From a bacterium (GTDB taxonomy: Bacteria; Patescibacteriota; Minisyncoccia; Portnoybacterales; JAKAHB01), in assembly GCA_021815315.1 (NCBI GenBank), contig JAKAHB010000001.1, positions 54,580 through 115,450 on the forward strand: a stretch of 60,871 bases of DNA, read 5' to 3'. Each line of letters starts with the position of its first letter. The first letter of the stretch is position 1. The translations under genes were made by a program, and so were the position numbers. The notes under the pieces are model-generated. The model had not been told where the DNA came from and made no database searches. It saw nothing but the letters and a program-made list of their open reading frames with translations. Positions 5,493 through 55,415 of this stretch are shown in pieces.

Positions 5493-6446
5493 ATGACCAT
5501 CAAAGAAGCGGTTGACCAGTATCTGGCCTATATTGAAGTGGAAAAAGGCCGTTCCGCTAAAACCAGCGAGAACTATGGCCGTTATCTGACGCGTTTTGAA
5601 AAATGGCTGGCTGAAGAAGAAAAAAAAGATCCGGCTAAAATGAAAGCCGAGAGCCTGACTTTGGATTCAGCTAGGAAATATCGACTTTTTCTGAATAGAA
5701 CGCTTAATGCCAAGGGCGAACCATTAAAAAAAATTACCCAAAACTACCACGTTATCGCTTTGCGAGGGCTCTTAAAATATTTGGCCAAGATTGACATCAA
5801 AACTTTGCCGGCGGAGCAAGTGGAGCTAGCCAGACAGGACCAGCGGACGGTTGATTTTTTAGAGGAAGAAGACCTGGAAAGATTACTGCAGTCGCCAGAC
5901 AGCCGGACTTTGCGCGGTCTGCGCGATTGCGCCATTTTGGAAACCCTGTTTTCCACCGGATTGCGCGTTTCCGAGCTTTGCGGGCTGAATCGTCATGAAA
6001 TTAACCTGGAAAAAGGAGAATTAAGCGTCCGCGGCAAGGGCGGAAAGGTGCGAGTGGTTTTTTTTTCCGACCGAGCCATTGCTGCCCTACAGCAATATTT
6101 GGCCAAAAGATATGACCTGGACAAAGCTCTGTTTGTGCGCGTTCCCAAAGGCAAGGCCCCGCGATTCAATCAGGGCGACGATTGGCGGCTAACTCCCCGC
6201 TCAATTCAGCGGTTGATAAAAAAGTACGCGATTAAAGCCGGGATTATAGGCAAAAAAGTGACTCCTCATGTGATGCGCCACTCTTTCGGCACCGATTTAC
6301 TGCGATCTGGAGCCGATATCCGTTCCGTGCAAGCCTTGCTGGGACACTCAAACATTTCCACGACCCAAGTTTATACCCATGTGACAGATAAGCATTTAAA
6401 AGAAATCCACGAAGCCTTTCACGGAAGGATGAGAAGGAAAAAATAA
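5493..6446 (+). CDS. Tyrosine recombinase, XerC/XerD family
   Basis: 317 aa with an N-terminal SAM-like domain. The catalytic region reads HVMRHSFGTDLLRSGADIRSVQALLGHSNISTTQVYTHV, giving the R..H-x-x-R..Y pattern. Confidence 0.85.
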   Translation: MTIKEAVDQYLAYIEVEKGRSAKTSENYGRYLTRFEKWLAEEEKKDPAKMKAESLTLDSARKYRLFLNRTLNAKGEPLKKITQNYHVIALRGLLKYLAKIDIKTLPAEQVELARQDQRTVDFLEEEDLERLLQSPDSRTLRGLRDCAILETLFSTGLRVSELCGLNRHEINLEKGELSVRGKGGKVRVVFFSDRAIAALQQYLAKRYDLDKALFVRVPKGKAPRFNQGDDWRLTPRSIQRLIKKYAIKAGIIGKKVTPHVMRHSFGTDLLRSGADIRSVQALLGHSNISTTQVYTHVTDKHLKEIHEAFHGRMRRKK

Positions 6447-8029: not shown

Positions 8030-8716
8030 TTAGAGGCCGAGGTAGGAGATGATCTCGGCATAGGTGCTGTCCTGGATGAGCCCCTCTTCCAGATAGAGGT
8101 CCAGAACCTCCTTGATGGTGAAGGCGGTCATGACCCGGTAGCCGCGCTCTTGGAGTTCCTGGACGCCGCCCTGCAGGCGGTCCACCAGAACGACCAGCCC
8201 GGAAACCACGAGGCTGGCGGCCTCTATGGCCTGGATGGCTTCCAACTTGGTCAGGGCGTGGGTAACCAAGTCGTCCGCCAAGAGGACGCTCATGCCGGGC
8301 CGAAGGCGGGGGTCGGGGTTGACTCGGGCAATGCGCCGGCCATCGGGGCCGGTTTCTTTGGCCAGGGTGATCAAGGGTTTGCCCGGGAACCAGCGCCCTT
8401 GGAGATGCCGGGCGATGGGGTTGCCGGCATTGGGAATACCGGCGATGAAATCAAAATCGAGGCTCCAGCCGTAGCCGGAGTCCACGACGACGTCGGCCAA
8501 GGTTTCGCCGATGTCGTACAAGACACCGTCCGTGAGCGGCCCGGGCTTGGGGTTGTCGGGAGTCCGCAGGTTGAGGTAGAAGGGCGAAAGCGGGGCGGTT
8601 GGGTCTTTCTCGTGCAATTTCAGTTTGAAGCCCAAACCGCCCGGTGACTGCTCTTTGGTCTGGATGGCGCCGATTTTCAACAGGCGCCGAGCCAGGCTTT
8701 CTTGGAGAGTTTTCAT
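8030..8716 (-). CDS. pyrE: Orotate phosphoribosyltransferase-like PRTase (high-GC)
   Basis: The N-terminus LLKIGAIQT...LSPFYLNLR resembles OPRTase. A PRPP loop is present (VLLADDLVTHALTK) but lacks the canonical TTGG. The ORF lies in a high-GC block with many shadow ORFs. Confidence 0.6.
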   Translation of the reverse strand: MKTLQESLARRLLKIGAIQTKEQSPGGLGFKLKLHEKDPTAPLSPFYLNLRTPDNPKPGPLTDGVLYDIGETLADVVVDSGYGWSLDFDFIAGIPNAGNPIARHLQGRWFPGKPLITLAKETGPDGRRIARVNPDPRLRPGMSVLLADDLVTHALTKLEAIQAIEAASLVVSGLVVLVDRLQGGVQELQERGYRVMTAFTIKEVLDLYLEEGLIQDSTYAEIISYLGL

Positions 8717-8730
8717 GGCTTGCCCTTTCT

Positions 8731-9483
8731 TTAGGCGTTGCGGGCTTCAAGGCCCTGGGTGATCTCCTCAACGATAAGCCGAGCCATATCGGCGCAACTC
8801 TTGCCCTCTTGAGGCTTGCTGATAGCCCGCCCGACGACGATGGCGTCGACGTCTTTTTCGATGGCCTCGGCCGGAGTCATTGTCCGGCGTTGGTCGTTTT
8901 GGGGTTGGCCGGGAAGTCGGATGGCCGGGGTGATTTTGATGAGCCCCTTGAGCTCGGGGTAGTCCCGGAACATCTCCAGCTCTTGGGGAGAGCAAATGAT
9001 GCCGTCGGCCCCGCCCAAAACCAGATTGCGGGCACAGTAAAGGACCTGGGCTCGGACTGAACGCCCCAGTAAAAGTTCGGCCTCCACCGGGTCAATGGAG
9101 GTGAGGACGCTCACACCCAACAAGATGGCCCTACCCTTGTTTTGGGCGGCGGCCCGGATAGCCGCCAGGCTGTTGTCGGCGTGGATGTTGATCATGCTGG
9201 CTCCTTGGGCGACAGCCGCTTTTATGGTTGCGCCCACGGTGTTGGGAATGTCCTTGGCCTTGATGTCCAGGAACCAGGGAGCTTCGAAGTCTCCCAGGAT
9301 AGCGGCCATGCGGGGGACGCCTGCGGCCGCGATAAGTTCCAGGCCGACTTTGAACAAGCCGACCTCGTCTTTGAGCTCCGCGATAAGAGAGATCGCTTCG
9401 GCGGAGGTTGGGACGTCCAAGGCAAAGATCAGCCGATCCTTGGGCTCCTTGAACAACTCACTTTTGTGCGAGGCAATTTGCAT
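8731..9483 (-). CDS. pyrF: Orotidine 5'-phosphate decarboxylase (high-GC)
   Basis: Carries DRLIFALDVP, FKVGLEL and FLDIKAKDIPNTV, the D-x-K-x-x-D-I-P-N-T signature of OMP decarboxylase. Confidence 0.8.
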   Translation of the reverse strand: MQIASHKSELFKEPKDRLIFALDVPTSAEAISLIAELKDEVGLFKVGLELIAAAGVPRMAAILGDFEAPWFLDIKAKDIPNTVGATIKAAVAQGASMINIHADNSLAAIRAAAQNKGRAILLGVSVLTSIDPVEAELLLGRSVRAQVLYCARNLVLGGADGIICSPQELEMFRDYPELKGLIKITPAIRLPGQPQNDQRRTMTPAEAIEKDVDAIVVGRAISKPQEGKSCADMARLIVEEITQGLEARNA

Positions 9484-9629: not shown

Positions 9630-9714
9630 TGGTGCCCGGGGCGGGACTTGAACCCGCACGGATTGCTCCACAAGATTTTAAGTCTTGCGTGTCTGCCAGT
9701 TCCACCACCCGGGC
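9630..9714 (-). tRNA. tRNA-Leu (anticodon TAA), class II, CCA encoded
   Basis: Acceptor GCCCGGG/CCCGGGC, anticodon stem CAAGA/TCTTG with loop CTTAAAA, long variable arm, T-arm GCGGG-TTCAAGT-CCCGC. Confidence 0.85.
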
Positions 9715-9721
9715 GTTGGTA

Positions 9722-9976
9722 TTACCTTGCTGATTCTCTTACTATCTGTCTAAGAGAGCTTCTACCTTTACTTGTTTTGAAATATTTTTCTCTCCTAATC
9801 GCATCCTTTTTACTTAAAAATGCTTCATAGAAAATCAGCTTGACGGGAAGCATTCTTTTTGTTGTCCAAACTTTTCCGCTTTTGTGTTCCAAAAAACGTC
9901 TTTTGAGATTATCGGTCCTGCCAATATATAGTCGGTCGTTTTCTCTTTCACTTCTTAATATATATACGTAATGCAT
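9722..9976 (-). CDS. Small GIY-YIG nuclease (COG2827/UPF0213-like, catalytic domain only)
   Basis: 84 aa. MHYVYILRSERENDRLYIGRTDNLKRRFLEHKSG has the Y-I-L...Y-I-G-x-T...R...E pattern of GIY-YIG. Confidence 0.8.
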   Translation of the reverse strand: MHYVYILRSERENDRLYIGRTDNLKRRFLEHKSGKVWTTKRMLPVKLIFYEAFLSKKDAIRREKYFKTSKGRSSLRQIVRESAR

Positions 9977-14659: not shown

Positions 14660-15253
14660 TCAGCGGATTTCCGCTTTGGCCTTGTGGTTTCGCCGAACGA
14701 AGATGAGCGTCGCGATGATTCCGCTCCCGAGGAACATGTAAATCGAGTAAACGGATATCGCAAACGTCCATGTCTCGACGGCGAATAGGTTAGCGGTGTT
14801 GCCTGCAAAGAACAGAGCCCATGCGGTGCGGTCCGCACTCTCTGGTTCGTGGTACGCCTTCCGAATCGTCGGAAGTGCGGCCACGAAAAAGATGAAGAGG
14901 TTGATGAGCAACGCGACGAGCGGTGAACTGAACATCCACCACAGCACCGCACTCACTCCTGCACCGAGCAGACAGCTCCTGTCGAACCGAGTCCAGCCAC
15001 CTTTGTCGTACTCGATTGACAGAATCGCGGTAGCGAATGACCCGATGTTGTAGCTCACGGGGACCCAGATGGTGTGGTTCGCGCCGGAGGAATAGTAACT
15101 CGCTCCGAGCATGAGACTGACCACCGTCCAAATCCACCATATTGCCCGATTGGGCCTCGTCTTACCTCGCAGAATTGCAAGAATGTATGGAATGAAGGCG
15201 ACAAGAGAGACAAAGCCCGCCACCTTCCCAGCAATAGCCGTGATGCCAGGCAT
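14660..15253 (-). CDS. High-GC polytopic (about 6-7 TM) membrane protein, possibly PQ-loop/SWEET-like
   Basis: I place the start at MPGITAIAG, preceded by AGGAGGGTGA; the track gives an upstream start at 15307. There are repeated TM-then-basic-loop motifs (IPYILAILRGKTRP and LPTIRKAYHEP). The family call is tentative. Confidence 0.55.
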   Translation of the reverse strand: MPGITAIAGKVAGFVSLVAFIPYILAILRGKTRPNRAIWWIWTVVSLMLGASYYSSGANHTIWVPVSYNIGSFATAILSIEYDKGGWTRFDRSCLLGAGVSAVLWWMFSSPLVALLINLFIFFVAALPTIRKAYHEPESADRTAWALFFAGNTANLFAVETWTFAISVYSIYMFLGSGIIATLIFVRRNHKAKAEIR

Positions 15254-15388
15254 TTCACCCTCCTTCTGGCTCGAGTTTTGTGCTATTGCTCGACAAGACC
15301 ACCTCACCGAGCTTCAAAACTACGCTAGTGTATTAAGGCATAAAAGTCAATAACCGGCAAGTTTGCCGATTATTGATAAAAATCTGAT

Positions 15389-15478
15389 TGGCGGAGGGTA
15401 GAGGATTCGAACCCCTGAAGGAATTGCTCCCTTACCGCATTTCGAGTGCGGCCCATTCGTCCGCTCTGGCAACCCTCC
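15389..15478 (-). tRNA. tRNA-Ser (anticodon CGA), class II, CCA encoded
   Basis: Acceptor GGAGGGT/ACCCTCC, anticodon stem CCGCA/TGCGG with loop CTCGAAA, long variable arm. Confidence 0.85.
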
Positions 15479-22993: not shown

Positions 22994-25243
22994 GTGCTTA
23001 TGGAGATCCCAAAATCACAAAAACCAAACATAGACTGGAAAGAAATAGAAGCGGCGGAAAGAAAAACCGAAGGGAGAAAAGCCCGGCGACTTGAGGGCGA
23101 GTTGGCAAGAGGGGGCAGTCGCGGCTTATCCTCCGTGTTTGGGGAAAGGAAAGAGGTCCGACTGCGCAAAGAGCTGGAAAGCTTCCAGGCCATGGGAGAA
23201 GACTGGGAAGAAAAAGCGCGAACCAAACAGCAGTGGCTGGAAACAACCCTGGAAAAAATGCCCGGGTTGAAAAATCCGGAGAAAATAAAAAAAGAAGTTC
23301 GTCAGGAAGTGGAAGCCTATCTGGCTAAGGCCCGAAGAGCCCGGCTGGAGGCTCGGGCCCGGGAATTGCGTCTGGCCGGTACGGATACCTACGAAAAGCG
23401 CAAGAGCAACCAGGTCATGGAAAGAAGCTGGAAAAAATTAGTCGCTCCCTTTGAAGAGCTGTTTCAGGTTTACGAACAAGCGCTAAACAATACCCAGGAA
23501 ATATTAAGAGAAGCCGAGTGGGAAGCCGTTGCCGCGAGAGATAGGGCGCTGGAAATGGAAATAACCCTCAACGACTGCGTTGAGATGAGAAAAGAGATGG
23601 GGATTGTCAAAAGACTCTACAGAAGTGTTCTTGGTAAAGACCGGGGCTTGGAATCTTTAATCAAGGAAGCCAGAGGGCAGCTTATAATTTTTGAAAAACA
23701 AGCAAAGCAGTGGGAAAAGAAAGCCGCGCGCTTGAGGGAGGCTTTAATTAAGTTAGAAGACAGAAGAGAGAAAAAAGAGACGGTGCTAGGAAATTACAAA
23801 AGAATATACGAGGACAAAATTAAAAATTTTGGGGCTGATGCCGAACAAGACGTGGCCAGGGAAGCCGAAACCGGCGTTGACGCGTCTTTGGTCGCTGAAA
23901 CAGACGAACCAGAAGTTGATATCCCCACGGGAAGTTTTACCTTGGGCGGTTTGGACGCGAGCGGATCTTTTGAAGAAGAACAATCCGACCGGGAAGAACT
24001 GGCCGTCGGGGCTCCTTTAGAGCCAGAGGGAAGGGAAGAGCCGGCGCGAGGTGGAGCCGCGAGGGAAGCGGAAGCGCCAAAAAAAGTGGAAAACCCGGAG
24101 ACGGTGGGAGACTATTTGCGAGCTTGGAACGATCTTTACGAGCAAGATAATCCGGAATTGATTTTTGATCTGGATGCTTTTTCGCCAAAAGTAAAAAGTG
24201 TTTTGGACAAGAAAGTCAGCGGCGAAAAGATAAAAGAAGTTTTTATCAGTTTGGTTGAAAAAAAGTTTGTGAAGCCGGGGACAATGGCGCCCTGGATTAC
24301 CGAGGCCTTGGAGCGGGCTCTGCCCTCGGCCGTTTTTGGTAAACGTTTGGGCATTGTTTACGAGGCCTTGGAGAAAAAACCGCGGCCGAAGTATTTGGGA
24401 GTCGAGAAAAAGGCAGAGCCAAAACCGGAAGCAGTAGAGTTGGAAAGACCGGAAAGGGTGGAGGCGCATGTTCTAAAAAGCCTGAAAAAATATCTTCTTG
24501 ACTGGAACAAGAAGTACCCCCGCCTGGCTCTTGCTCCGCTGAATTTCCCTCCGGAAGTTTTAACAAATTTGCAAAAAGGGGTTAAGCCCGATGACGCCAA
24601 GAATTTTTTGATCGGTTCATTAAGGATTGTTCTTGTTAATCGTGGACTGGCCAAGCCGGAATTGCTGGAGATTTTGCAAAACCTTTCTCTGGAAGATATT
24701 TTAAATGGCGCGAAAGAGAAAGAAATAGACGACACTTTTATAAGGCCAATAGAAAATGAGGGAACGATAAGCAAAAAAAAGAGGGAGAGCAAGGCAAAAA
24801 TGATTGAGGTGGGGAAAGATAAAGCGGATAATTTAGGCCGCAAGCTCAAAGCTTTTGTTGAATTTCTTGGAAAAAGAAAAGAAGCGGGCTTTAACCCGTA
24901 TGTCAGCGAAGAAGGGATAGCCGGGATGAAAACAAGCAGGGAATTATTTCTTGGGTTGGACGCGAAAATCGGGGCGAGCGATTTTAATAAGAAGTTGGGT
25001 GTTTTTGTGAAAGCCCTGGAGGGGGTAGGAAGAAACCTCGGAGAGTTTGAGCCAGATAACGCAGAGTCTATCCAAGAGGTGCGAGACGTTTTTGAGGATG
25101 TAGAGAAGGCTTTTACGGAAGTTGCGGAGTCTATCCCCCAGGGGCAGAAAACTAAGCTGGTTGCGTCAAGGCTGAACAAGGCGAGCCAGTTAATCGGAAA
25201 GAAAAATGACTTTTTACGCCGGTTACAAGAATTAAAAAAATAA
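22994..25243 (+). CDS. Large Glu/Lys-rich coiled-coil protein with internal repeat, unknown function
   Basis: 749 aa. The track start is a GTG and an ATG lies at 23000. Two related modules are present (VGDYLRAWNDLYEQDNPELIFDLDAFSPKV... and LKKYLLDWNKKYPRLALAPLNFPPEV...). Confidence 0.5.
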   Translation: MLMEIPKSQKPNIDWKEIEAAERKTEGRKARRLEGELARGGSRGLSSVFGERKEVRLRKELESFQAMGEDWEEKARTKQQWLETTLEKMPGLKNPEKIKKEVRQEVEAYLAKARRARLEARARELRLAGTDTYEKRKSNQVMERSWKKLVAPFEELFQVYEQALNNTQEILREAEWEAVAARDRALEMEITLNDCVEMRKEMGIVKRLYRSVLGKDRGLESLIKEARGQLIIFEKQAKQWEKKAARLREALIKLEDRREKKETVLGNYKRIYEDKIKNFGADAEQDVAREAETGVDASLVAETDEPEVDIPTGSFTLGGLDASGSFEEEQSDREELAVGAPLEPEGREEPARGGAAREAEAPKKVENPETVGDYLRAWNDLYEQDNPELIFDLDAFSPKVKSVLDKKVSGEKIKEVFISLVEKKFVKPGTMAPWITEALERALPSAVFGKRLGIVYEALEKKPRPKYLGVEKKAEPKPEAVELERPERVEAHVLKSLKKYLLDWNKKYPRLALAPLNFPPEVLTNLQKGVKPDDAKNFLIGSLRIVLVNRGLAKPELLEILQNLSLEDILNGAKEKEIDDTFIRPIENEGTISKKKRESKAKMIEVGKDKADNLGRKLKAFVEFLGKRKEAGFNPYVSEEGIAGMKTSRELFLGLDAKIGASDFNKKLGVFVKALEGVGRNLGEFEPDNAESIQEVRDVFEDVEKAFTEVAESIPQGQKTKLVASRLNKASQLIGKKNDFLRRLQELKK

Positions 25244-44265: not shown

Positions 44266-45579
44266 ATGCTTAATAAACGCAACCTGATAATTATCGTTAT
44301 TATCGTTCTACTGGTGGCTTTTGGTTTATTGGTGGCGCAATATGGCTTCAAACAAAGTCCCAACCAAAACAAGGCAGAGATAGTGGTTTGGGGCTTGTTT
44401 GACGATTCGGGCGACATGAGAAGCTTGCTAGAAAAGTTTAATGTTGATTACCCCAACATTAAAGTAAATTATTATAAAAAAACTGTTGATACTTACGAGA
44501 AAGACCTGTTGGAAGCCCTGGCTACCGGCCGAGGACCGGACGTATTTTTGATTCACAATACTTGGTTGCCCAAGCATCAGGACAAACTCCAGCCACTACC
44601 GGACGGCTGGATGAGTTTGCGTGAATTTCAAGACAACTTTGTGGATGTGGCCTATCAGGATTTTGTTGCAAACGGAAAAATATTCAGCCTGCCAGTGTGG
44701 TGCGACACCATGGCGCTTTATTGGAATAAAGACTTTTTTAATAAAGAAAGCATCGCTCGACCGCCGTTAACCTGGGAAGAGTTTTCTCGGGACGTGGAAT
44801 TATTGACTATCAGAAACGAGAAAGGCGACATTTTGAGATCGGGCGCCGCTATCGGCACCGCGCGCAATATTAACCGTTCTTCGGATATTCTAAGTTTGTT
44901 AATGCTGCAAACCGGCACTAAAATGGTTAATACCGCCAGCAATAAAGCCACGTTTAATATCGCGGTAAAGAATAATGGTCAGGATTACAATTCTGGCGAA
45001 GAGGCCCTGCGTTTCTATACGGATTTTGCCAGCGCGCAGAAAAGTGTCTACACTTGGAATAACGCGCGCGATTACTCCATTGATTCATTCGTTCGGGGGG
45101 ATGTGGCGATGATGTTTAATTATGCTTATAATTTGCAACTGATTAAGGCTCGTTCGCCTCATCTTAATTTTGCCGTGGCCGGCATGCCGCAGGCAGAAAG
45201 CGCCAGTAAAAAAGTCAACTACGCCAACTATTGGTCATATGGCGTTAGCCGGGCCAGCCAAGCCAGCCAGCAATCCTGGATTTTCACTTTTTGGCTAAGC
45301 CAAAAGACAAACGCCAAAATTTATTTGGATACGTTCAAGCGTCCGGCCGCCAGAAGAGATTTAATAGAAGAGCAAAAAGGGGATGAGGAACTGGGTGTTT
45401 TCGCCGAGCAGGCCCTTACGGCTCAATCTTGGTATCAAGTTGATAATTCGGCGATTGAACAAATTTTTGCGGATATGATTGACGATGTTGTTTTGGGTCG
45501 TTCCGTGGCCAAAGATGCCATAGAAAGAGCGGTTTCTCGGGTTAATTTGTTGATGGAAAACAAAAAAAGCGGTAATTAA
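44266..45579 (+). CDS. Extracellular solute-binding protein (family 1, sugar-type ABC SBP), no adjacent permease
   Basis: N-terminal TM anchor. VVWGLFDD...YKKTVDTYEKDLLEALATGRGPDVFLIHNTWLPK is typical of SBP_bac_1. Confidence 0.7.
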   Translation: MLNKRNLIIIVIIVLLVAFGLLVAQYGFKQSPNQNKAEIVVWGLFDDSGDMRSLLEKFNVDYPNIKVNYYKKTVDTYEKDLLEALATGRGPDVFLIHNTWLPKHQDKLQPLPDGWMSLREFQDNFVDVAYQDFVANGKIFSLPVWCDTMALYWNKDFFNKESIARPPLTWEEFSRDVELLTIRNEKGDILRSGAAIGTARNINRSSDILSLLMLQTGTKMVNTASNKATFNIAVKNNGQDYNSGEEALRFYTDFASAQKSVYTWNNARDYSIDSFVRGDVAMMFNYAYNLQLIKARSPHLNFAVAGMPQAESASKKVNYANYWSYGVSRASQASQQSWIFTFWLSQKTNAKIYLDTFKRPAARRDLIEEQKGDEELGVFAEQALTAQSWYQVDNSAIEQIFADMIDDVVLGRSVAKDAIERAVSRVNLLMENKKSGN

Positions 45580-45585
45580 AGCTAT

Positions 45586-45990
45586 ATGAGAAAAACAATT
45601 TTAAAAATGTTTTTGCCCGCTATCACTTTTTTATATCTGGCTATCCCAACTCTGGTAGCGGCGGACGGGTTGGTGCCTTGTAGCGGGCCAGATTGCGATT
45701 TCTGCAAACTATTACAACTTATTTTAAACATTATTAATTTTGTCGCCAAAACCTTGACTCCGGCGGTGGCTGGATTATTGGTTGTGATTGGTGGTATAAT
45801 GTATTTATTGGCGGGAGCCAATCCTAGTTTGCTTAGCAAAGCCAAAGGGATTTTACTCAATGTTGTGGTCGGCTTAATTATCATCTACGTTTCTTATTTG
45901 ATAGTTTATACCGTTTTAAATGTCCTATCTTCCAATACGGCGGGATTCACCATCAGCGGCTGGGTTTCCGGCAGTCTAAATTGTCCATAA
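45586..45990 (+). CDS. TrbC/VirB2-like type IV secretion pilin-like protein
   Basis: Signal peptide, then GLVPCSGPDCDFCKLLQLILNIINFV, then two TM helices. This architecture is common in CPR pilin-like genes. Confidence 0.6.
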   Translation: MRKTILKMFLPAITFLYLAIPTLVAADGLVPCSGPDCDFCKLLQLILNIINFVAKTLTPAVAGLLVVIGGIMYLLAGANPSLLSKAKGILLNVVVGLIIIYVSYLIVYTVLNVLSSNTAGFTISGWVSGSLNCP

Positions 45991-46374
45991 ATGTTTTTCA
46001 TCAAGAAAAAGGCAATCTTTTTTATCTCAGCGCTTTATCTCTCTTTTTGTTTTCCTTTTTTTTGTTTCAATTCAGCGCTAGCGGCAGAGGGGAGTAGCGG
46101 CGCCGGGGGGGCATCCCTGCCTAACTTTTTGGGAGAAGGCGCCACTTTCCCGACCTTACTGGAAAGAATTGTTGATTTTTTGTTAACGTTGGCCGGTCCT
46201 TTTGCGGTGATTATGGTTTTGTGGGCGGCTTTTCTGTATATTACTTCTTCCGGTAATGCCAACAGAATCAGCCAGGCTCATAAGGTCATTTTGTGGACGG
46301 TGGTAGGCGTGGGAGTGCTGGTTCTTTCCAAGGGACTTATTTCTTTAATTGTCGATATTCTTGGAGGTAATTAA
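45991..46374 (+). CDS. TrbC/VirB2-like pilin-like protein (paralog 2)
   Basis: Signal peptide, Gly-rich linker, two TM helices (PFAVIMVLWAAFLYITSSG, VILWTVVGVGVLVL). Confidence 0.55.
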   Translation: MFFIKKKAIFFISALYLSFCFPFFCFNSALAAEGSSGAGGASLPNFLGEGATFPTLLERIVDFLLTLAGPFAVIMVLWAAFLYITSSGNANRISQAHKVILWTVVGVGVLVLSKGLISLIVDILGGN

Positions 46375-46398
46375 ATGTTTAGAAGGGAGGTGAGGTTT

Positions 46399-46743
46399 AT
46401 GAAAAAGAAAATTATGTCAGCCCTTTCGTCTTTGGCGATTTTAGCCCTGCCTTTAACGGCCGGCGCTCAACAGGCTTTGCCGACAATAACGGCACGTTCC
46501 GGGTCCTTGGATCAAGGCGCCGTGACTTCGATTTTGGGAAAAGTGGCCACTTTTGCCTTGGGTATCATCGGCGGCGTGGCGGTTATTATGATTTTGTATG
46601 CTGCCTTTTTGTTTGTAACTTCACAGGGTGGTGAAAGCACCACCAAGGCGAGAAAGACCCTGACTTGGGGAATCATTGGTGTGGTAGTTGCGATTCTTTC
46701 TTACGCGCTTATCAACTTTGTTTCTTCTTTCTTCGCCAGTTAG
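46399..46743 (+). CDS. TrbC/VirB2-like pilin-like protein (paralog 3)
   Basis: Start MKKKIMSAL follows AGGGAGGTGA; the track start is 46375. It has a signal peptide ending in AGAQQ and two TM helices with an FVTSQGG loop. Confidence 0.55.
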   Translation: MKKKIMSALSSLAILALPLTAGAQQALPTITARSGSLDQGAVTSILGKVATFALGIIGGVAVIMILYAAFLFVTSQGGESTTKARKTLTWGIIGVVVAILSYALINFVSSFFAS

Positions 46744-46767
46744 TTTTTGTTTAAAACTTTCTATCTC

Positions 46768-46799
46768 AAAACCGCCTCTTTTGGAGGCGGTTTTGTTGT
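46768..46799 (+). terminator. Terminator after the pilin triplet
   Basis: aaaACCGCCTCttttgGAGGCGGTtttgttg. Confidence 0.65.
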
Positions 46800-46890
46800 C
46801 TTTGTTCTGCGAGGGTTGAGTTTCTGGGCCGGCGCTTTCTTTGCTCTCGTCCAGAAAATTCTAGCCTCGCTCAAGACGGACGAGGAAATA

Positions 46891-46945
46891 AATAAAAAAA
46901 GCCCGGGAGAAGAGAGAACGACGAGGCGCTCTTCCTCTCCCGGGC
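46891..46945 (-). terminator. Strong terminator of the high-GC three-gene operon
   Basis: The minus strand reads GCCCGGGAGA...TCTCCCGGGC followed by TTTTTTTATTT, 7 nt after the stop of the 346-aa ORF. Confidence 0.7.
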
Positions 46946-46951
46946 AGGGGG

Positions 46952-47992
46952 TCAAAGCGAGCCGATATGCGGCTCGCCCAGCCGGGGCTTAGCCCCGGCT
47001 GGATAACGGATGACGATCCGGAACTCCCGGTCCAGGGGGTTATTCATCTTTAGGCCAGTGTCGCCTGGGGGGACCGAAACGGTCTTACCCCAAGGCCGGT
47101 TGTCAATCGTCCGCCAATGAGCGGTAAAACCGCTCGGATTGGCCAAAACCGGCCAGCTAACCTGACCCCGAGGAGGGACCACCGTGGGCAAGATCTCCTC
47201 GACGAACTGTTGCCCGGCGGCGTGCGCGAGCGGCTTGTCCAGCTCGCTTTCCAGCTCCGGGAACTGCCAGTGGGTTAGCCCCGCGGCTAAACCACTAAGG
47301 AGCAGTAATCCGCCCAGGAAGCCGAAGAAGTTCCTGGCCGGCATCCTGGAGCCAAACACCAGGGCGAGGGCCAGAAAGATGGCGCCAAGGGTGAGGCAGA
47401 CGATGCCGGCTCCCCTTAAGGCCGACTTCTTGGCTCGGGCTTGAGACAGGCTGTTCTTGAGCTCTTCGCTCTTTTGGCGGTTCTTGCCAATTTCCTTGAT
47501 GACCGTCATGGTTTGGGTTTGGGCCTGCTCCAGGCTCAATGTCCCCCGATCCAGGCCGGAGCGAATCTCGGCTAGTTTCTTGCCGTCTTCTGCCCCGATC
47601 CGGTCCTCTAGGTTCTGCAGGTGCGCGCCCGCTTCGCGGCGGGAGCGCAGCATCTCGGGGTTGGTCTGGAGAAAGACCTCCAGATCGCGCGCTAGGAGCG
47701 CGCGCCGGGCGGCTTCTCCCGACATCCCCGTGTAGGAGTCAAAAGACGTTGTGGTTGCCGTCCACCAGTCCCGGGCGACGGTGCCCAGGAGCCCAGTGGA
47801 GAGCATGACCAGCATGCTTGCCGCAATCACGAGGTTGCGGCCGCGGAAGAGGGGAACGGTCTGCAACAACCATCCCCAGATGAAGACCACGGCGCCGATG
47901 GCAAACACCGTCCAGATGGTGTCCACATAACCGGCGATCCTCAAGACTATCGCCAGCGGCACTCCGGCCGCCAACACTACCCAATGGGGCAT
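46952..47992 (-). CDS. High-GC polytopic membrane protein with central coiled-coil and beta-rich C-terminal domain, unknown family
   Basis: 346 aa. About 3-4 N-terminal TMs, a charged helical region of about 110 aa (ARDLEVFLQTNPEMLRSRREAGAHLQNLEDRIGAEDGKKLAEIRSGL...), two more TMs, then VSWPVLANPSGFTAHWRTIDNRPWGKTVSVPPGD... An AAGGAAGGAGAGGG RBS precedes it. Confidence 0.6.
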   Translation of the reverse strand: MPHWVVLAAGVPLAIVLRIAGYVDTIWTVFAIGAVVFIWGWLLQTVPLFRGRNLVIAASMLVMLSTGLLGTVARDWWTATTTSFDSYTGMSGEAARRALLARDLEVFLQTNPEMLRSRREAGAHLQNLEDRIGAEDGKKLAEIRSGLDRGTLSLEQAQTQTMTVIKEIGKNRQKSEELKNSLSQARAKKSALRGAGIVCLTLGAIFLALALVFGSRMPARNFFGFLGGLLLLSGLAAGLTHWQFPELESELDKPLAHAAGQQFVEEILPTVVPPRGQVSWPVLANPSGFTAHWRTIDNRPWGKTVSVPPGDTGLKMNNPLDREFRIVIRYPAGAKPRLGEPHIGSL

Positions 47993-48009
47993 GGCCCTCT
48001 CCTTCCTTG

Positions 48010-48705
48010 TTAGTGGCGGCGAATGAGCCGCTCAACAAAGCCGCCAAAGACTTCGCTCAAGATCTCTAAGGGGATGAAGACTTGGAACATCTTCCAGAAG
48101 TTCCCCTTGGTCGTTGTCGTCGCGGTGGCGTCCGTCGTGGTGGGGGCTTCCAGCGAAATCCGTTGGTGCCGCAGTTGGTGGTTGTCTACCGCCCACCAGT
48201 AGGCGCTCCGAATTTCGTCCCAGAGCGCCACCGGGGTGGACACCAGCGCCAGCAAGAAGCTGGCTCCGCAGAGCCACCACCATAGCCAGGTGCCTTGCGG
48301 CTTGGCCGAAGCGGCAACTTCCGCAACAGCCTGTTGCTCCAAGCGGAGCTTTTCTTGGGGCGAAGGCCCCCAGGCGCTCGGCCAATAGTTTTGGGCTATT
48401 GACCTTTCTGTCCCCTGTTCCACCTTCGGAGCAACAGGGGACTTATTAACCGGCGGGCCGCCGCCTTGGATGATGGCGTTGACCAGCAGACCAAGGAAAG
48501 CCACCCAGAAAATGACCAGCGCCCAGTTGTTGAGGCACTGGTTCTTCATCAGTCGCCACCACAGCCAGCCCGAAAGAAGCGAGCCGGCGATGACAAAAGA
48601 CGTTTTGGACCCCAGCAGAAGCGAAGCGGCCAAAGCCGCCGCTCCGGTGAGTAACAGCCAGAGGCCGGGGTAACCGGCCCAGCGCCAATGCCAGAACCAG
48701 TTCAT
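48010..48705 (-). CDS. High-GC Trp-rich 4-TM membrane protein, unknown family
   Basis: I place the start at MNWFWHWRW, where TGATG overlaps the upstream stop and GGAAGGAGG lies 5 nt upstream. The track gives 48738. Confidence 0.55.
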   Translation of the reverse strand: MNWFWHWRWAGYPGLWLLLTGAAALAASLLLGSKTSFVIAGSLLSGWLWWRLMKNQCLNNWALVIFWVAFLGLLVNAIIQGGGPPVNKSPVAPKVEQGTERSIAQNYWPSAWGPSPQEKLRLEQQAVAEVAASAKPQGTWLWWWLCGASFLLALVSTPVALWDEIRSAYWWAVDNHQLRHQRISLEAPTTTDATATTTTKGNFWKMFQVFIPLEILSEVFGGFVERLIRRH

Positions 48706-48983
48706 CACAGCCTCCTTCCGCGAAAGGTCTCTCTCCAAATGTGCTGACCGCCGAAAGCGGCCAGCTCAATTTCTATGTGCCGATGCTCGCCCGGGATAAG
48801 GGTGAATTCGTGCTCCGCCCGGCCGTCGGTGTCAGCCAGGACAAACGACTTCACCTTGTTGGTCCGGACGATGATCCTTGTGCCCGGAACTCCTTGGCTG
48901 TTCTCACCACCGACAAAAAGTCGGATGGTGACGGTGTTTTTGTCTCGTTCTGGATGGACATCCAGGAACTTCGGGGTGGTCAT
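48705..48983 (-). CDS. High-GC small soluble beta-rich protein (prealbumin/CarboxypepD_reg-like pattern, tentative)
   Basis: 92 aa. VTIRLFVGGENSQGVPGTRIIVRTN...TDGRAEHEFTLIPGEH. AGGAGGG lies 5 nt upstream of the ATG. No signal peptide. Confidence 0.55.
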   Translation of the reverse strand: MTTPKFLDVHPERDKNTVTIRLFVGGENSQGVPGTRIIVRTNKVKSFVLADTDGRAEHEFTLIPGEHRHIEIELAAFGGQHIWRETFRGRRL

Positions 48984-49049
48984 AATTCCCTCCTGATCTA
49001 ACGCGCAAGGCGTGCTTTTTATTTAGTTGTTAGGGTACTGATTCTTAAC

Positions 49050-49079
49050 ATTATAGCACAAGGACTCGATATTTGTCAA
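49050..49079 (-). promoter_or_regulatory. Near-consensus sigma70 promoter of the high-GC operon
   Basis: The minus strand reads TTGACA, an 18-nt spacer, then TATAAT, within an AT-rich stretch about 65 nt upstream of the first ATG. Confidence 0.55.
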
Positions 49080-49148
49080 GGGCAAACGTTCGCCAAAAAA
49101 ATCGCCGGTTTAAGCGATTTTTTTGGCGAGTGGCTAGTCTCAATTTTT

Positions 49149-49233
49149 TGGTGCCGATGGTGGGACTTGAACCCACACGAGTTTCCTCACTAGGTCCTAA
49201 ACCTAGCGCGTCTGCCAGTTCCGCCACATCGGC
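49149..49233 (-). tRNA. tRNA-Leu (anticodon TAG), class II, CCA encoded
   Basis: Acceptor GCCGATG/CATCGGC, anticodon stem CTAGG/CCTAG with loop TTTAGGA, long variable arm. Confidence 0.85.
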
Positions 49234-49254
49234 AATTCCAAGTTATCCAGCGTC

Positions 49255-51015
49255 TTATTCCAGCGGATTTTTTTCTATTTTATGATACAATGCCGGCGAT
49301 TTATAATTGGAAAAAAAAGTTTGCATTCGAACCAGTTTTTCATTTTTCCAAACCTCTTGGGTCAAAATAGTTTTCATTGAGCCATCGGGATTGGCCTCCA
49401 GCACGAAAGGCCCTTTTAGCCGAGTTTCTCTTCCGTCGGCAGTGCCAAAAATCTCAAAGAAAATTTTATTCCCTTTGATGTAGGATTGCAAGAGAAGATT
49501 GTTGGGGGTGTCATTTTTGAACCGCAAATCGGGGTGGGGGGGATAGATGGTTGAATCAAAACCTTGAGGATTGTAATAGGCAACCGGATAAGCGTGAGGC
49601 GTCCTTTCCGTGATTGGCAGCCCGGCGTTAACCGCGGCCCGGAACAAGGTGGTAGAAACCTGGCAAAGCCCGCCGCCGTATTCGGGAATGGTTCTGTTAT
49701 CTTTAATAACCAACTCCGGCAGATAACCGGAAGCCGCGTCAACGCTCCCCAGCAGTCCGTTAAAAGAAAATTCTTTCTCGGCTTGCAGCAAAATTCCATC
49801 AAACTTAGCCGCTCCTGTTTTGATATTATATCTTCGATTGACCGGCGAGCCGGAAAAATCGGAAACGCCGGTGGCCAGCAAGGAGACAAGGCCCAAATTT
49901 GCAAGCGACCGGGAATCAATTCGCGGTTTGACCTCTACGACCGTCAAATTAATGTTTCTCGCGCCTTCAAAGAGAACTTTTTTAACAATTTTGAGACTGG
50001 CATCAATGTTCAGTTTCTGCCCGGCTTGCGAGACTTGAGTCGCGACTACTTCATTGTTTTCGTTCACTTGGAGTCGCGCGTTTGAGGGCTCGCGGTTAAT
50101 TGTGGGAGCCAATTGCGCGAGCGTGGTGGTGATGGCATCTTCATTTAAGTCGGGAAAAATAAATTTGATTTTTGAATCATTGTTGGTTTCGTTTTCAGTC
50201 ATTGGCGATGTAAACTTGGTCCAGAGAGCTTGCAATTTTTTGTAATCTTCTTGGTTGACAATCCTAAAGTCAAGCCAGCCAAAAATGTCGTTAGCGTCGT
50301 AGCTCCAAGTTTCTTGATTGAAGCGGAAAGTTACAGGGACCAGAGAGATGATTCTGTTGGTTAACCAAAGAGCGGTGGTTGCCTGACGGCTATCAACGAT
50401 TGGGTTTTTGTCAATCAGTCGTAAATTAACCTTGGTTGGAAGCAGGCGGGGAGGGTTGGTCAAGATTGAACGCAGAAGAACTTCTCGGTCAAAAACCTTT
50501 CCGATGCGGCTGGGTTCAAGATAGGCCACCTTGGTTTTGGGGTTTATTTTAATTTGCGCGTCTTGGGGTTGTGATTCTTTTGCTGCCAAATCGCTCAAGA
50601 AAGCGTGTAATTTTTTCTGGTCAACCACCAAGGTCAACTCAATTTCTTTTTTTAGGAACAAACTTTTTAATTGAAGCCCGGTCTTTTCCGGCCAGGAGCC
50701 GGTATGGCCGTTATTTTTCAAGACTTGCAAGGCGGGCCTGGGATCAAGGCTCAAGCCCAGAGAAGAAGGCTGAAGTGATAATTTTTTTTGCTCAATAACA
50801 ATCTCCACGGGGCTGCTAAGGTAGTCGCTTATTGACTGGCTCAGTTTCTGCTCCGCTTGGTCGGAATTTAGCCCGCCATAAGGAGAGTCGGCCACGATTG
50901 TTCCCAAGATAACCTTATCTTGGTTGAGCCAATTGAGCCAAAGAGACAATAACAAAATCAGGGCGATTAAACCGCCGGTAAGCAAAAAAGTTTTTTTCAA
51001 AAAAGAGGTAAACAT
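49255..51015 (-). CDS. VanW-family protein with N-terminal membrane anchor
   Basis: The C-terminal GGGLCQVSTTLFRAAVNAGLPITERTPHAYPVAYY is the VanW core. Confidence 0.8.
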   Translation of the reverse strand: MFTSFLKKTFLLTGGLIALILLLSLWLNWLNQDKVILGTIVADSPYGGLNSDQAEQKLSQSISDYLSSPVEIVIEQKKLSLQPSSLGLSLDPRPALQVLKNNGHTGSWPEKTGLQLKSLFLKKEIELTLVVDQKKLHAFLSDLAAKESQPQDAQIKINPKTKVAYLEPSRIGKVFDREVLLRSILTNPPRLLPTKVNLRLIDKNPIVDSRQATTALWLTNRIISLVPVTFRFNQETWSYDANDIFGWLDFRIVNQEDYKKLQALWTKFTSPMTENETNNDSKIKFIFPDLNEDAITTTLAQLAPTINREPSNARLQVNENNEVVATQVSQAGQKLNIDASLKIVKKVLFEGARNINLTVVEVKPRIDSRSLANLGLVSLLATGVSDFSGSPVNRRYNIKTGAAKFDGILLQAEKEFSFNGLLGSVDAASGYLPELVIKDNRTIPEYGGGLCQVSTTLFRAAVNAGLPITERTPHAYPVAYYNPQGFDSTIYPPHPDLRFKNDTPNNLLLQSYIKGNKIFFEIFGTADGRETRLKGPFVLEANPDGSMKTILTQEVWKNEKLVRMQTFFSNYKSPALYHKIEKNPLE

Positions 51016-53837: not shown

Positions 53838-55415
53838 GTGACGAGCAGCTTAAGCGACCATAATCTTATGACTCTGGACGCCGAGAAAAGATATTATTTA
53901 GAAGTGGGGCGCGCTGAAGATCTGCGAGGCAAAGACAGGGTTATTTACCGATTCTTTGAAATGTTGCCCGGGATTTTGGCCTGGTCAACTTTGGTTGCGA
54001 TTTTCGTTCTCTCTTGGCTGGCTCCCATTTTCACGGCCTTTTTTATTATTGTTTTTGATCTCTTCTGGCTTTTGAAAACGGTTTTTTTGTCGTTGCATTT
54101 GAGAGTTAGCTATAACCGTACCAAAAAGCACTTAAAAATAAAATGGTTTGAATGCCTGCAAGCGGATTTCGATCAACAATGGCAAGAGATTACTCATTTA
54201 TTGATCTATCCTTTTTACGACGAATCTTTTGAGGTGCTAGACACCACCCTCGGCTCTCTATTGCAGTCGCGTTATGATTTAAAAAAACTGATGATTGTCT
54301 TGGGAGTAGAAAGAAGAGCGGGCCAAGGAGCGTTAAAAGTTGCCGAGCGGGTTAAGGAAAAATACGCGGAAAATTTTGGAGATTTTTTAATTACCATCCA
54401 TCCCGATAATATCGTGGGCGAAATTGCCGGCAAAGGATCCAACGAAACTTGGATGGGCAAAGAGGCCAAGGAAAAGCTGATAGACAAGCGCGGCCTGAAC
54501 TACAAAAAAGTCGTTGTTTCTGTTTTTGACGCGGACACTCAAGTTTACCCCGAGTATTTTGGCTGTTTAACTTGGCATTATTTGAAGGCGGCCAAACCTC
54601 ATCGTTGCAGTTTTCAACCGATTCCGGTCTTTCACAATAACATTTGGGACGCGCCATTTTTTTCTCGAGTGGCGGCTCTTTCCTGCACTTTTTGGCAGAT
54701 GATGCAACAAGCCCGAGCCGATCGCCTGACTACTTTTTCTTCTCAAGCCTTGAGTTTCCAGGGCTTGGCTGATATGGATTTTTGGAATCCGAAAAATGTT
54801 TCTGAAGACTCGCGGGTTTTTTGGAAAGCTCTGTTGGCCTTTGACGGGGACTATTCCGTGGTCCCTCTTTATTACCCCGTTTCCATGGATGCCAATTTGG
54901 CCCCCACTTTTTGGGAGACTGCCAAAAACGTTTACAAACAGCAACGCCGTTGGGGCTGGGGCTCTGAAAATGTCGCTTATCTTCTTTTCGGGTCAATAAA
55001 AAATAAAAAGATGCCTTTAAGATTAAGGCTTAAGCATAACCTCAATCAGATTGAAGGTTTTTGGTCATGGGCGACTAACGCTCTGATGATTTTTCTTTTG
55101 GGTTGGTTGCCGTTAATGGTTGGCGGGCAACAGTTCAATCAAACCGCGCTGGCTTATAATCTTCCCAGACTGACTCGCTGGATTATGACTTTCGCCATGA
55201 TCGGAATTGTCAGCTCGGTTATCTACAGTTTGACTTTAATGCCTAAAAGACCGGGAAAATACGGAAAGCGCAAATATTTCGCGATGGCTTTGCAATGGTT
55301 GACCTACCCCATAAATTTAATAATCCTGGGAGCTATCCCTGGCCTGGAGGCGCAGACAAGATTGATGTTGGGTAAGTACATGGGTTTCTGGGTAACGCCC
55401 AAGGCGAGGAAATAA
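53838..55415 (+). CDS. Membrane-embedded family 2 glycosyltransferase (processive-type)
   Basis: Flanking TMs. VFDADT and QQRRWGWGSE (Q-x-x-R-W) motifs. GTG start per the track. Confidence 0.7.
   Translation: MTSSLSDHNLMTLDAEKRYYLEVGRAEDLRGKDRVIYRFFEMLPGILAWSTLVAIFVLSWLAPIFTAFFIIVFDLFWLLKTVFLSLHLRVSYNRTKKHLKIKWFECLQADFDQQWQEITHLLIYPFYDESFEVLDTTLGSLLQSRYDLKKLMIVLGVERRAGQGALKVAERVKEKYAENFGDFLITIHPDNIVGEIAGKGSNETWMGKEAKEKLIDKRGLNYKKVVVSVFDADTQVYPEYFGCLTWHYLKAAKPHRCSFQPIPVFHNNIWDAPFFSRVAALSCTFWQMMQQARADRLTTFSSQALSFQGLADMDFWNPKNVSEDSRVFWKALLAFDGDYSVVPLYYPVSMDANLAPTFWETAKNVYKQQRRWGWGSENVAYLLFGSIKNKKMPLRLRLKHNLNQIEGFWSWATNALMIFLLGWLPLMVGGQQFNQTALAYNLPRLTRWIMTFAMIGIVSSVIYSLTLMPKRPGKYGKRKYFAMALQWLTYPINLIILGAIPGLEAQTRLMLGKYMGFWVTPKARK

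Follow-up and report, generated by a model that had tools for sequence, protein, structure and literature searches.

Does an abrupt rise in G+C content beside a tRNA gene mark DNA that has recently been inserted, or can such an island be a long-standing resident of its locus? The question is raised by three minus-strand open reading frames (ORFs), named o1, o2, and o3 in transcription order, that make up a block at positions 46891 to 49079 of a 60,871-nt stretch of contig JAKAHB010000001.1. This whole stretch, from a bacterium of the Patescibacteria (candidate phyla radiation [CPR]), is called the window, or W in pairwise comparisons. A preliminary description had read the block as a horizontally acquired envelope module. 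We find instead that the trio is probably an envelope operon that is specific to one clade and ancestral there, and not an island of recent arrival; a sharp G+C island beside a tRNA gene need not be a recent insertion. The Patescibacteria account for a large share of uncultivated bacterial diversity, and the cultivated ones live attached to other microbes. The trio is a three-protein membrane or surface module of no known family, kept beside a pilin array through deep divergence.

To place the block in context, we compared the window with related loci and assemblies (L001 to L023). Nine lineages had a readable context around o3: the window; L001, L002, and L003; L010 to L012; L013, L014, and L023; L015 and L016; L017; L018; L020; and L022. 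A metagenome scan with a subset of the o3 alignment returned five loci. In all nine lineages, o1, o2, and o3 stood together in this order and were followed by a convergent array, with o1 and o2 fused in L013, L014, and L023. The array contained two to five recognized, divergent T4SS_pilin genes (VirB2-like pilins of type IV secretion systems [T4SS]) per locus, and a gene for an SBP_bac_1 solute-binding protein (SBP) usually lay beyond it. The upstream side of the trio varied: we found VanW and tRNA-Leu, tRNA-Leu followed by PaaX_M, tRNA-Leu with a small ORF behind an IVP gene, or other genes. Nevertheless, tRNA-Leu(tag) was located upstream of the trio in L001, L002, L003, L013, and L018. Because it thus recurs in distant lineages, its adjacency is ancestral synteny and not an integration scar.

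The trio and its flank ranked the lineages alike. Amino acid identity of the SBP was 84% between W and L001, 65% between W and L010, and about 50% between W and the others (range down to 43 to 50%). The corresponding values were 68%, 49%, and about 26% for o2 and 77%, 32%, and about 30% for o3, so that both proteins reproduced the order of the flanking SBP (L001 > L010 > others). One of the o3 homologues carries the label "Patescibacteria group bacterium." No att-like repeats or duplicated tRNA end occurred in 46600 to 49400, no integrase or transposase was found (o1 to o3 are the only genes of the block), and the trio had no match in a scan of viral contigs or in tblastn searches of phage genomes and plasmids. 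Together, the trio at the same locus in all nine lineages, the congruent ranking, and the lack of mobility signs argue for vertical inheritance and not recent insertion.

These results also make it quite improbable that the block is a newly acquired, autonomous island beside tRNA-Leu with a foreign exclusion, defense, or adhesion function. Such an island would account for the abrupt step in G+C and in G+C at third codon positions (GC3), for the adjoining tRNA gene, for a promoter and terminator of its own, and for the lack of a recognizable family. However, the orthologues at the same locus have ordinary G+C, the tRNA gene is an ancestral neighbor, and of the four features that define a genomic island, only atypical composition was found. 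The horizontal acquisition that had been proposed thus gives way to orthology that extends down to about 45 to 50% SBP identity. The suggested exclusion or defense function received no support either, as the sole PADLOC match was that of o3 to JetC (E = 0.003, 13 bits), a coiled-coil artifact; with no significant match, we rejected a defense system. A phage holin or lysis cassette was likewise rejected, given a Phage_holin_3_6 match below cutoff (E = 0.056), PHROG matches at E ≥ 0.13, and no viral contigs. The adhesion or host-interaction role named in the same description remains plausible as a surface or host-interaction role.

The genes themselves are real. The same three ORFs occur in two diverged relatives, L001 and the pair L002/L003, with identities to the window of 60 to 62% for o1, 66 to 69% for o2, and 77% for o3. 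Substitutions relative to these relatives were in excess at codon position 3 in all three proposed frames. In codon-aligned comparisons, the ratio of nonsynonymous to synonymous substitution rates (dN/dS) was 0.20 to 0.35 for all three ORFs (o1, 0.23 to 0.26; o2, 0.35). Every domain of o3 was constrained between W and L001, a 27-residue linker was relaxed in the within-genus pair, and apart from that one short linker, domain-wise dN/dS gave no sign of positive selection in o3. The frames of o1, o2, and o3 are thus the true coding frames, under purifying selection. Furthermore, the exact window proteins, with the same neighbors on both sides, were present in at least six independent assemblies (ENA, NCBI, and Logan). 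Because the junctions are identical across these assemblies, the block is not an assembly chimera.

The chance that the block is an artifact, either a chimeric assembly or shadow ORFs in G+C-rich noncoding DNA, is negligible. Long ORFs do arise in all frames of high-GC DNA, and two assemblies (L007 and L008) break inside o2. Neither point outweighs the identical junctions, the conservation of the trio with constraint and with changes that favor the third position of precisely these frames, and the remote homologues that exist for all three proteins; on the latter grounds, shadow ORFs were rejected. The breaks in L007 and L008, which are independent assemblies of the same organism, fall at the window equivalent of about 48150 to 48180, some 160 to 180 nt upstream of o3. 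They could reflect strain-level polymorphism at a recombining locus or loss of coverage in the G+C-rich stretch.

The three genes of the block form a genuine operon that is transcribed independently, with its own promoter, coupling, and strong terminator (Table 1). Every expression element that the preliminary description had listed (promoter, ribosome-binding site, TGATG overlap, 17-nt spacer, and terminator) is present on the minus strand. The block also lies where it had been placed, between the pilin terminator and tRNA-Leu(TAG), and its own promoter and terminator bear out the view of a self-contained, autonomously expressed unit. Promoter-like sites numbered 3 in the 2.9-kb region, compared to 0.7 expected from shuffles. 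The same TTGACA...TGCTATAAT element precedes o1 in L001, L002, and L010, and similar elements were found in five more loci (L015, L017, L018, L020, and L023). A TGATG stop-start overlap at 48705 joins o1 and o2, and o2 is translationally coupled to o1 through it. The 17-nt spacer between o2 and o3 is purine rich (AAGGAAGGAGAGGG). Downstream of o3, the terminator folds with a ΔG of −34.4 kcal/mol (z = −5.47), which none of 200 shuffles matched. At the other end, the palindrome that separates the tRNA from the promoter is probably a bidirectional terminator that would shield the operon from tRNA read-through. In most lineages, a hairpin of 4 to 12 bp, different in sequence in each, lies a few nucleotides 5′ of the o1 Shine-Dalgarno sequence. 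This hairpin in the 5′ untranslated region (UTR) may serve in mRNA stabilization or translation tuning; in the window it is weak (−4.4 kcal/mol) and no better than shuffles.

Table 1. Coordinates of features at and around the o1-o2-o3 operon (window positions unless a related locus is named)
Feature	Position	Strand	Remarks
tRNA-Leu(tag)	49149..49233	-	upstream neighbor of the block; ARAGORN and Rfam
Perfect 16-bp palindrome with A/T runs	49090..49129	.	inverted repeat I1, 100% complementary
Sigma-70-type promoter TTGACA-18-(TG)cTATAAT	49050..49079	-	12/12 consensus match, extended -10 TG
5′ UTR hairpin	~49000-49016	-	equivalents in L001, L002, L013, L015, L020, L023
Ribosome-binding site AGGAGGG of o1	48988..48994	-	sequence reading
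o1, 92 aa	48705..48983	-	predicted soluble Ig-like beta-sandwich protein
o2, 231 aa	48010..48705	-	Trp-rich membrane protein; GGAAGGAGG upstream of start
o3, 346 aa	46952..47992	-	predicted 5-TM protein
Intrinsic terminator, 19-bp G+C-rich hairpin and U7	46894..46945	-	downstream of o3
Recombination tract	L001 9300-11200; L002 3900-5850		window equivalent ~48630-46660; both alleles high-GC
Three VirB2-like T4SS pilin genes	45586-45990, 45991-46374, 46375-46743	+	PF18895 and PF04956 on identical loci; NCBIfam pilin-like conjugal transfer protein
Pilin array terminator	46767-46795	+	array and terminator span 45586..46795
SBP_bac_1 gene with pilin genes	44266-46743	+	SBP_bac_1 gene ends 6 nt before first pilin gene
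Longer o1 relatives (examples)	L010 409-942; L015 1212-1814; L020 4577-5293
458-aa T4SS_pilin/TrbC fusion and flanking bAvd-like / 23S_rRNA_IVP genes, array of a related lineage	L013 8701-10477, 13459-13836; L023 4352-5728
Second G+C-rich island	8030-9483	-	G+C 0.60-0.66, GC3 0.74-0.81
tRNA-Leu(taa)	9630-9714		adjoins second island
GIY-YIG gene	9722-9976		just past tRNA-Leu(taa)
Tyrosine recombinase gene	5493-6446
Third, milder GC3-rich gene	14660-15307	-	G+C 0.55, GC3 0.68; polytopic membrane protein, 215 aa, no Pfam match
tRNA-Ser(cga)	15389-15478		adjoins third GC3-rich gene
Large window ORFs without Pfam match	750-2294, 22994-25243, 53838-55415

What the operon encodes had been called unrecognizable, and our searches agree. 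None of the three proteins had a significant match in Pfam, NCBIfam, PHROGs, PADLOC, or PDB sequences, a PDB sequence-profile search with o2 and o3 returned nothing, and a word-indexed search of 5.8 billion proteins had no matches outside the lineage of the window. All three represent undescribed protein families. A full HMMER scan of 1.8 billion representative proteins with an o3 profile gave 28 matches at E ≤ 0.001, of which 19 reached E < 1e−10. These 19 homologues are 334 to 397 aa long, except for two shorter ones (258 and 289 aa), and align over residues 1 to 250 only. The aligned part consists of three transmembrane (TM) segments, a conserved helical stretch of about 120 aa that carries the motif NPxML(K/R)SR, and two further TM segments. 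The five hydrophobic segments, the helical region, and a C-terminal beta domain correspond to the architecture first described for o3.

The C-terminal domain of o3, which has about 100 aa, cannot be aligned across lineages. An AlphaFold2 (AF2) model of o3 built from 19 sequences had a mean predicted local distance difference test (pLDDT) score of 68.5, with values of 80 to 88 for most of the C-terminal beta-sandwich (residues 262 to 346). Foldseek searches of PDB with two o3 models returned generic beta-sandwich matches only (E ≥ 4.5e−3). A few BFVD matches at E < 1e−3 were dismissed for TM-scores of about 0.18 and root mean square deviations of 13 to 65 Å. In the window's lineage, the domain shows a weak similarity to Ig_3 repeats from a surface protein of the BspA type, and the modeling suggests a lineage-variable, immunoglobulin (Ig)-like beta-sandwich. 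In all homologues, the short loops TM2-TM3 and TM4-TM5 carry only K/R as charged residues, with hardly any D/E. By the positive-inside rule, this would place both soluble domains of o3, the helical domain and the beta tip, outside the cell.

The other two proteins also fit their first characterization. Tryptophan makes up 4.6% of trio residues, compared to 1.5% in flanking proteins, in line with the description of o2 as Trp rich. The conserved core of o2 reads TM-QGGG(E/P)P, a loop of about 60 aa, TWxWW-TM-FWDE, and a basic tail, and its homologues share motifs around the two core TM segments. For o1, described as beta rich and CarboxypepD_reg-like, weak signals appear across the family: CarboxypepD_reg matches five of eight members (best E = 0.0028), and the Big_1 profile matches one (E = 1e−4). 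The window's own o1 had no significant match to either. Most o1 relatives have two beta-sandwich domains in 177 to 238 aa, compared to 92 to 100 aa in the window's lineage. In a family-profile search, the N-terminal domain of the longer relatives matched intimin Big_1 in a PDB chain (E = 1e−4). The window's lineage has lost this N-terminal Ig-like (Big_1-like) domain and kept the second. No o1 has a signal peptide. Specifically in L013, L014, and L023, which represent one lineage in two independent assemblies, o1 and o2 form a single protein of 406 to 460 aa. The fusion supports a physical complex of o1 and o2, with o1 on the cytoplasmic side.

We hypothesized that the three proteins form a membrane-embedded envelope complex, specific to one Patescibacteria clade and inherited vertically at a fixed locus, a reading for which we consider the chances about even. 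In this complex, o1 would act as an Ig-like adaptor in the cytoplasm, either docked on o2 at its N-terminal cytoplasmic side or fused to it there. The small, Trp-rich o2 would contribute a loop of some 60 aa on the outside and a basic tail in the cytoplasm, and o3, with five membrane spans, would display at the surface the conserved helical domain (about 120 aa) and an Ig-like tip that varies between lineages. The cytoplasmic face would then comprise o1 and the tail of o2, and the outer face the o2 loop with the helical domain and tip of o3. We saw no conserved catalytic residues or motif in the trio, which suggests a structural or adhesive complex and not an enzyme. The structural part of this proposal has its weak points. 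The membrane part of o3 was modeled with modest confidence (pLDDT, 47 to 82), and the o3 models had no structural neighbor in PDB below E = 1e−3. Furthermore, a cytoplasmic Ig-like protein is unusual, and the location of o1 follows solely from the absent signal peptide and the fusion.

Could the complex work with the pili encoded next to it? Tentatively, its most likely role would be that of a surface or host-interface module that cooperates with the neighboring VirB2-like pilus of these epibiotic bacteria in anchoring, adhesion, or partner recognition. A more specific version, which we regard as doubtful, is a hitherto undescribed accessory apparatus of that pilus, in which o2 and o3 would form a platform with o1 as adaptor, and the helical domain and swappable tip would anchor the filament or set partner or host specificity. 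The locus would then be a recombination hot spot where allele exchange, possibly with GC-biased conversion, drives both diversification and the G+C anomaly. Several observations weigh against such a link. Conserved adjacency is the only evidence that ties the trio to the pilins, the two units are convergent, and each has its own terminator. The whole neighborhood (SBP, methyltransferase, and GyrA) is syntenic as well, and the adjacency could therefore be a product of inertia. Among 1.8 billion proteins, the o3 family accounts for a mere 28 representative clusters at E ≤ 0.001, compared to VirB2 arrays reported in hundreds of Patescibacteria genomes (PMC12102498), which suggests that most pilin arrays lack the trio. 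Finally, the T4SS core genes VirB4, VirB6, and VirD4 were not recognized among the window ORFs scanned. More broadly, no VirB4, VirB3, VirB8, or VirD4 domains were recognized in the window ORFs scanned, three large ones of which have no Pfam match, or in related loci.

The convergent transcription with separate terminators, the wider synteny, and the many pilin arrays that seem to lack the trio are equally arguments for a clade-specific membrane complex unrelated to pilins, with a function in, for example, envelope maintenance, stress response, or transport, and an adjacency that merely reflects conserved gene order. Such a complex is a possibility that we hold no more than tentatively. It is also favored by the 6 of 19 o3 homologues that weakly match DUF2207_C, a generic predicted membrane family. 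However, the upstream side of the trio has been remodeled repeatedly, whereas the pilin junction was kept in 9 of 9 lineages, down to 43 to 50% SBP identity. In addition, o3 has a lineage-variable tip that would be surface exposed, and its alleles are exchanged, both of which are typical of interaction surfaces. A variable surface tip combined with allele exchange between strains makes the trio a testable host-interface candidate in one CPR clade.

The compositional anomaly is as abrupt as had been described. The G+C content of 46891 to 49079 is 0.600, compared to 0.451 in the rest of the window, and no other 2.2-kb stretch is higher. GC3 reaches 0.68 in o1, 0.75 in o2, and 0.78 in o3, compared to a window median of 0.49. 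In most other lineages, however, the G+C of the trio is only 3 to 9 points above that of its flanks. Part of the excess is intrinsic, since the trio encodes Gly/Ala/Arg/Pro/Trp-rich proteins in every lineage: Gly, Ala, Arg, and Pro make up 0.27 to 0.32 of residues, compared to 0.23 to 0.27 in the flanks, with low K/(K+R) and high Trp throughout. The large GC3 excess (0.66 to 0.78) is confined to the window and L001, L002, and L003, with intermediate values in some o3 genes elsewhere; it arose only in the window's genus-level lineage. That an excess of 25 points persists across a synonymous divergence of more than 0.65 is an odd compositional feature for a small genome.

The locus also recombines. 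Between L001 and L002, the flanks are 95 to 99% identical, and o2, o3, and the downstream spacer are 80 to 92% identical. Synonymous divergence (dS) is 0.31 for o2-o3 compared to 0.03 for o1, whose protein is 97% identical. The drop in identity and the contrast in dS identify a recombination tract, in which alleles of the operon have been exchanged. Polarized third-position changes on the L001 and L002 branches comprised 55 from GC to AT and 25 from AT to GC, counts that parsimony bias and recombination confound. The implied equilibrium GC3 of the trio is 0.60, compared to a current 0.76 and a flank equilibrium of 0.44. The excess of changes toward AT looks like amelioration of imported DNA and in this respect counts against an operon that has simply been inherited. 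We ranked two candidate causes of the GC3 excess roughly equal: replacement of the native operon by an allele from an unsampled, close relative of high G+C and recombination-linked GC-biased conversion.

In the replacement scenario, homologous recombination in the ancestor of the window and L001 overwrote the native operon with its orthologue (a xenologous replacement) from an unsampled, closely related Patescibacterium of about 65% G+C, and the allele has been ameliorating slowly since. We consider this conceivable, although unlikely. By the general relations between G+C at the three codon positions, the trio (for o3, GC1/GC2/GC3 = 0.62/0.48/0.78) looks equilibrated in a genome of about 65% G+C. 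The recombination tract covers exactly o2-o3 between two 97%-identical genomes, the third-position changes run in the expected direction, and synonymous divergence between W and L001 (the proportion of synonymous differences, pS) is 0.44 for o2 and o3, below the 0.54 to 0.77 of the flanks. The same genome has other GC3-rich patches as well, namely, pyrF-pyrE and the gene of a 215-aa membrane protein. However, a donor-like sequence was not found among the 1.8 billion representatives. Outside the lineage, the best homologue is only about 30% identical, and it belongs to the trio of the lineage whose flanking genes are also the most similar, so the donor would have to combine very close kinship with a strongly deviating G+C. 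Moreover, the step in G+C falls at the start codon and the terminator and does not coincide with flanking homology, the promoter is native and shared with L010, and parsimony overcounts changes from common to rare bases. Replacement would alter the alleles of an operon that, in our reading, was already ancestral at this locus.

Two further GC3-rich patches occur in the window. The second island encodes orotidine 5′-monophosphate decarboxylase (pyrF; NCBIfam E = 4.5e−51) and a divergent orotate phosphoribosyltransferase-like protein (pyrE). Its context is the same in several independent assemblies, and it is possibly a genuine horizontal transfer of pyrimidine genes into a CPR genome. The third patch is milder. 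Each of the three patches directly follows a tRNA gene for Leu or Ser that is encoded on its own strand. The window has 23 tRNA genes in 61 kb, and its housekeeping genes include those for PNPase, IF-2, NusA, trigger factor, RNase Y, GyrA, RecG, and FtsH, a gene content that is typical of a very small genome. On the other side of the trio, the SBP gene and the pilins look cotranscribed, and their pairing is kept in L001, L010, L013, L018, L020, and L022; no ABC permease or ATPase gene adjoins the SBP gene. In the array of the L013/L023 lineage, the 458-aa pilin fusion is flanked by bAvd-like and 23S_rRNA_IVP genes, which are accessory proteins of diversity-generating retroelements (DGRs). The pilins of that lineage may be DGR targets.

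Among known systems, o3 invites comparison with VirB6/TrbL. Extended VirB6 proteins are polytopic, with about five hydrophobic helices and large central and C-proximal hydrophilic domains (PMC12857230), and o3 is similarly built and similarly encoded beside VirB2-like pilin genes. The resemblance is one of architecture only. No VirB6/TrbL family was among the Pfam families listed (25 of 27, E ≤ 0.1) for the 19 o3 homologues, and no VirB6-, TrbL-, or PrgH-like chain was among the Foldseek PDB matches listed, for which model confidence in the o3 TM region was modest. In contrast to VirB6/TrbL, the topology of o3 would put the N terminus inside and the C terminus outside, and the trio does not adjoin VirB4, VirB3, or VirB8. 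The C-terminal domain of DUF2207 (PF20990) shares with o3 a helical linker followed by a TM hairpin. All of its matches to o3 are below the gathering score (best E = 8e−5; window o3, E = 0.32), and o3 lacks the N-terminal domain of DUF2207. Because DUF2207 is itself uncharacterized, a match would say nothing about function.

Generic Ig-like or prealbumin-like beta-sandwich domains (Big_1 of intimin/invasin and CarboxypepD_reg) are the counterparts to compare with o1, and the weak CarboxypepD_reg matches of its family come with the TDxxG(R) motif and alternating hydrophobic strands. However, the intimin match falls in the N-terminal domain that the window's o1 has lost, and such domains are normally extracytoplasmic, unlike an o1 that has no signal peptide and in one lineage is fused to the cytoplasmic side of o2. 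At the level of the locus, the trio resembles tRNA-linked genomic islands in its G+C step at the 3′ side of a tRNA gene, as do the window's other GC3-rich patches in adjoining tRNA genes. It differs in having no integrase, att repeats, or duplicated tRNA 3′ end and in an order of tRNA and trio that is ancestral. By its position, the trio is also connected to the VirB2-like pilin arrays that are characteristic of Patescibacteria (PMC12102498, PMC10633639, PMC12857230). In the only species tested, Southlakia epibionticum, these arrays and the T4SS proved essential (PMC10633639). The trio stands outside any described T4SS gene set, is convergent to the array, and occurs in one small clade only, and yet the array is its invariant neighbor.

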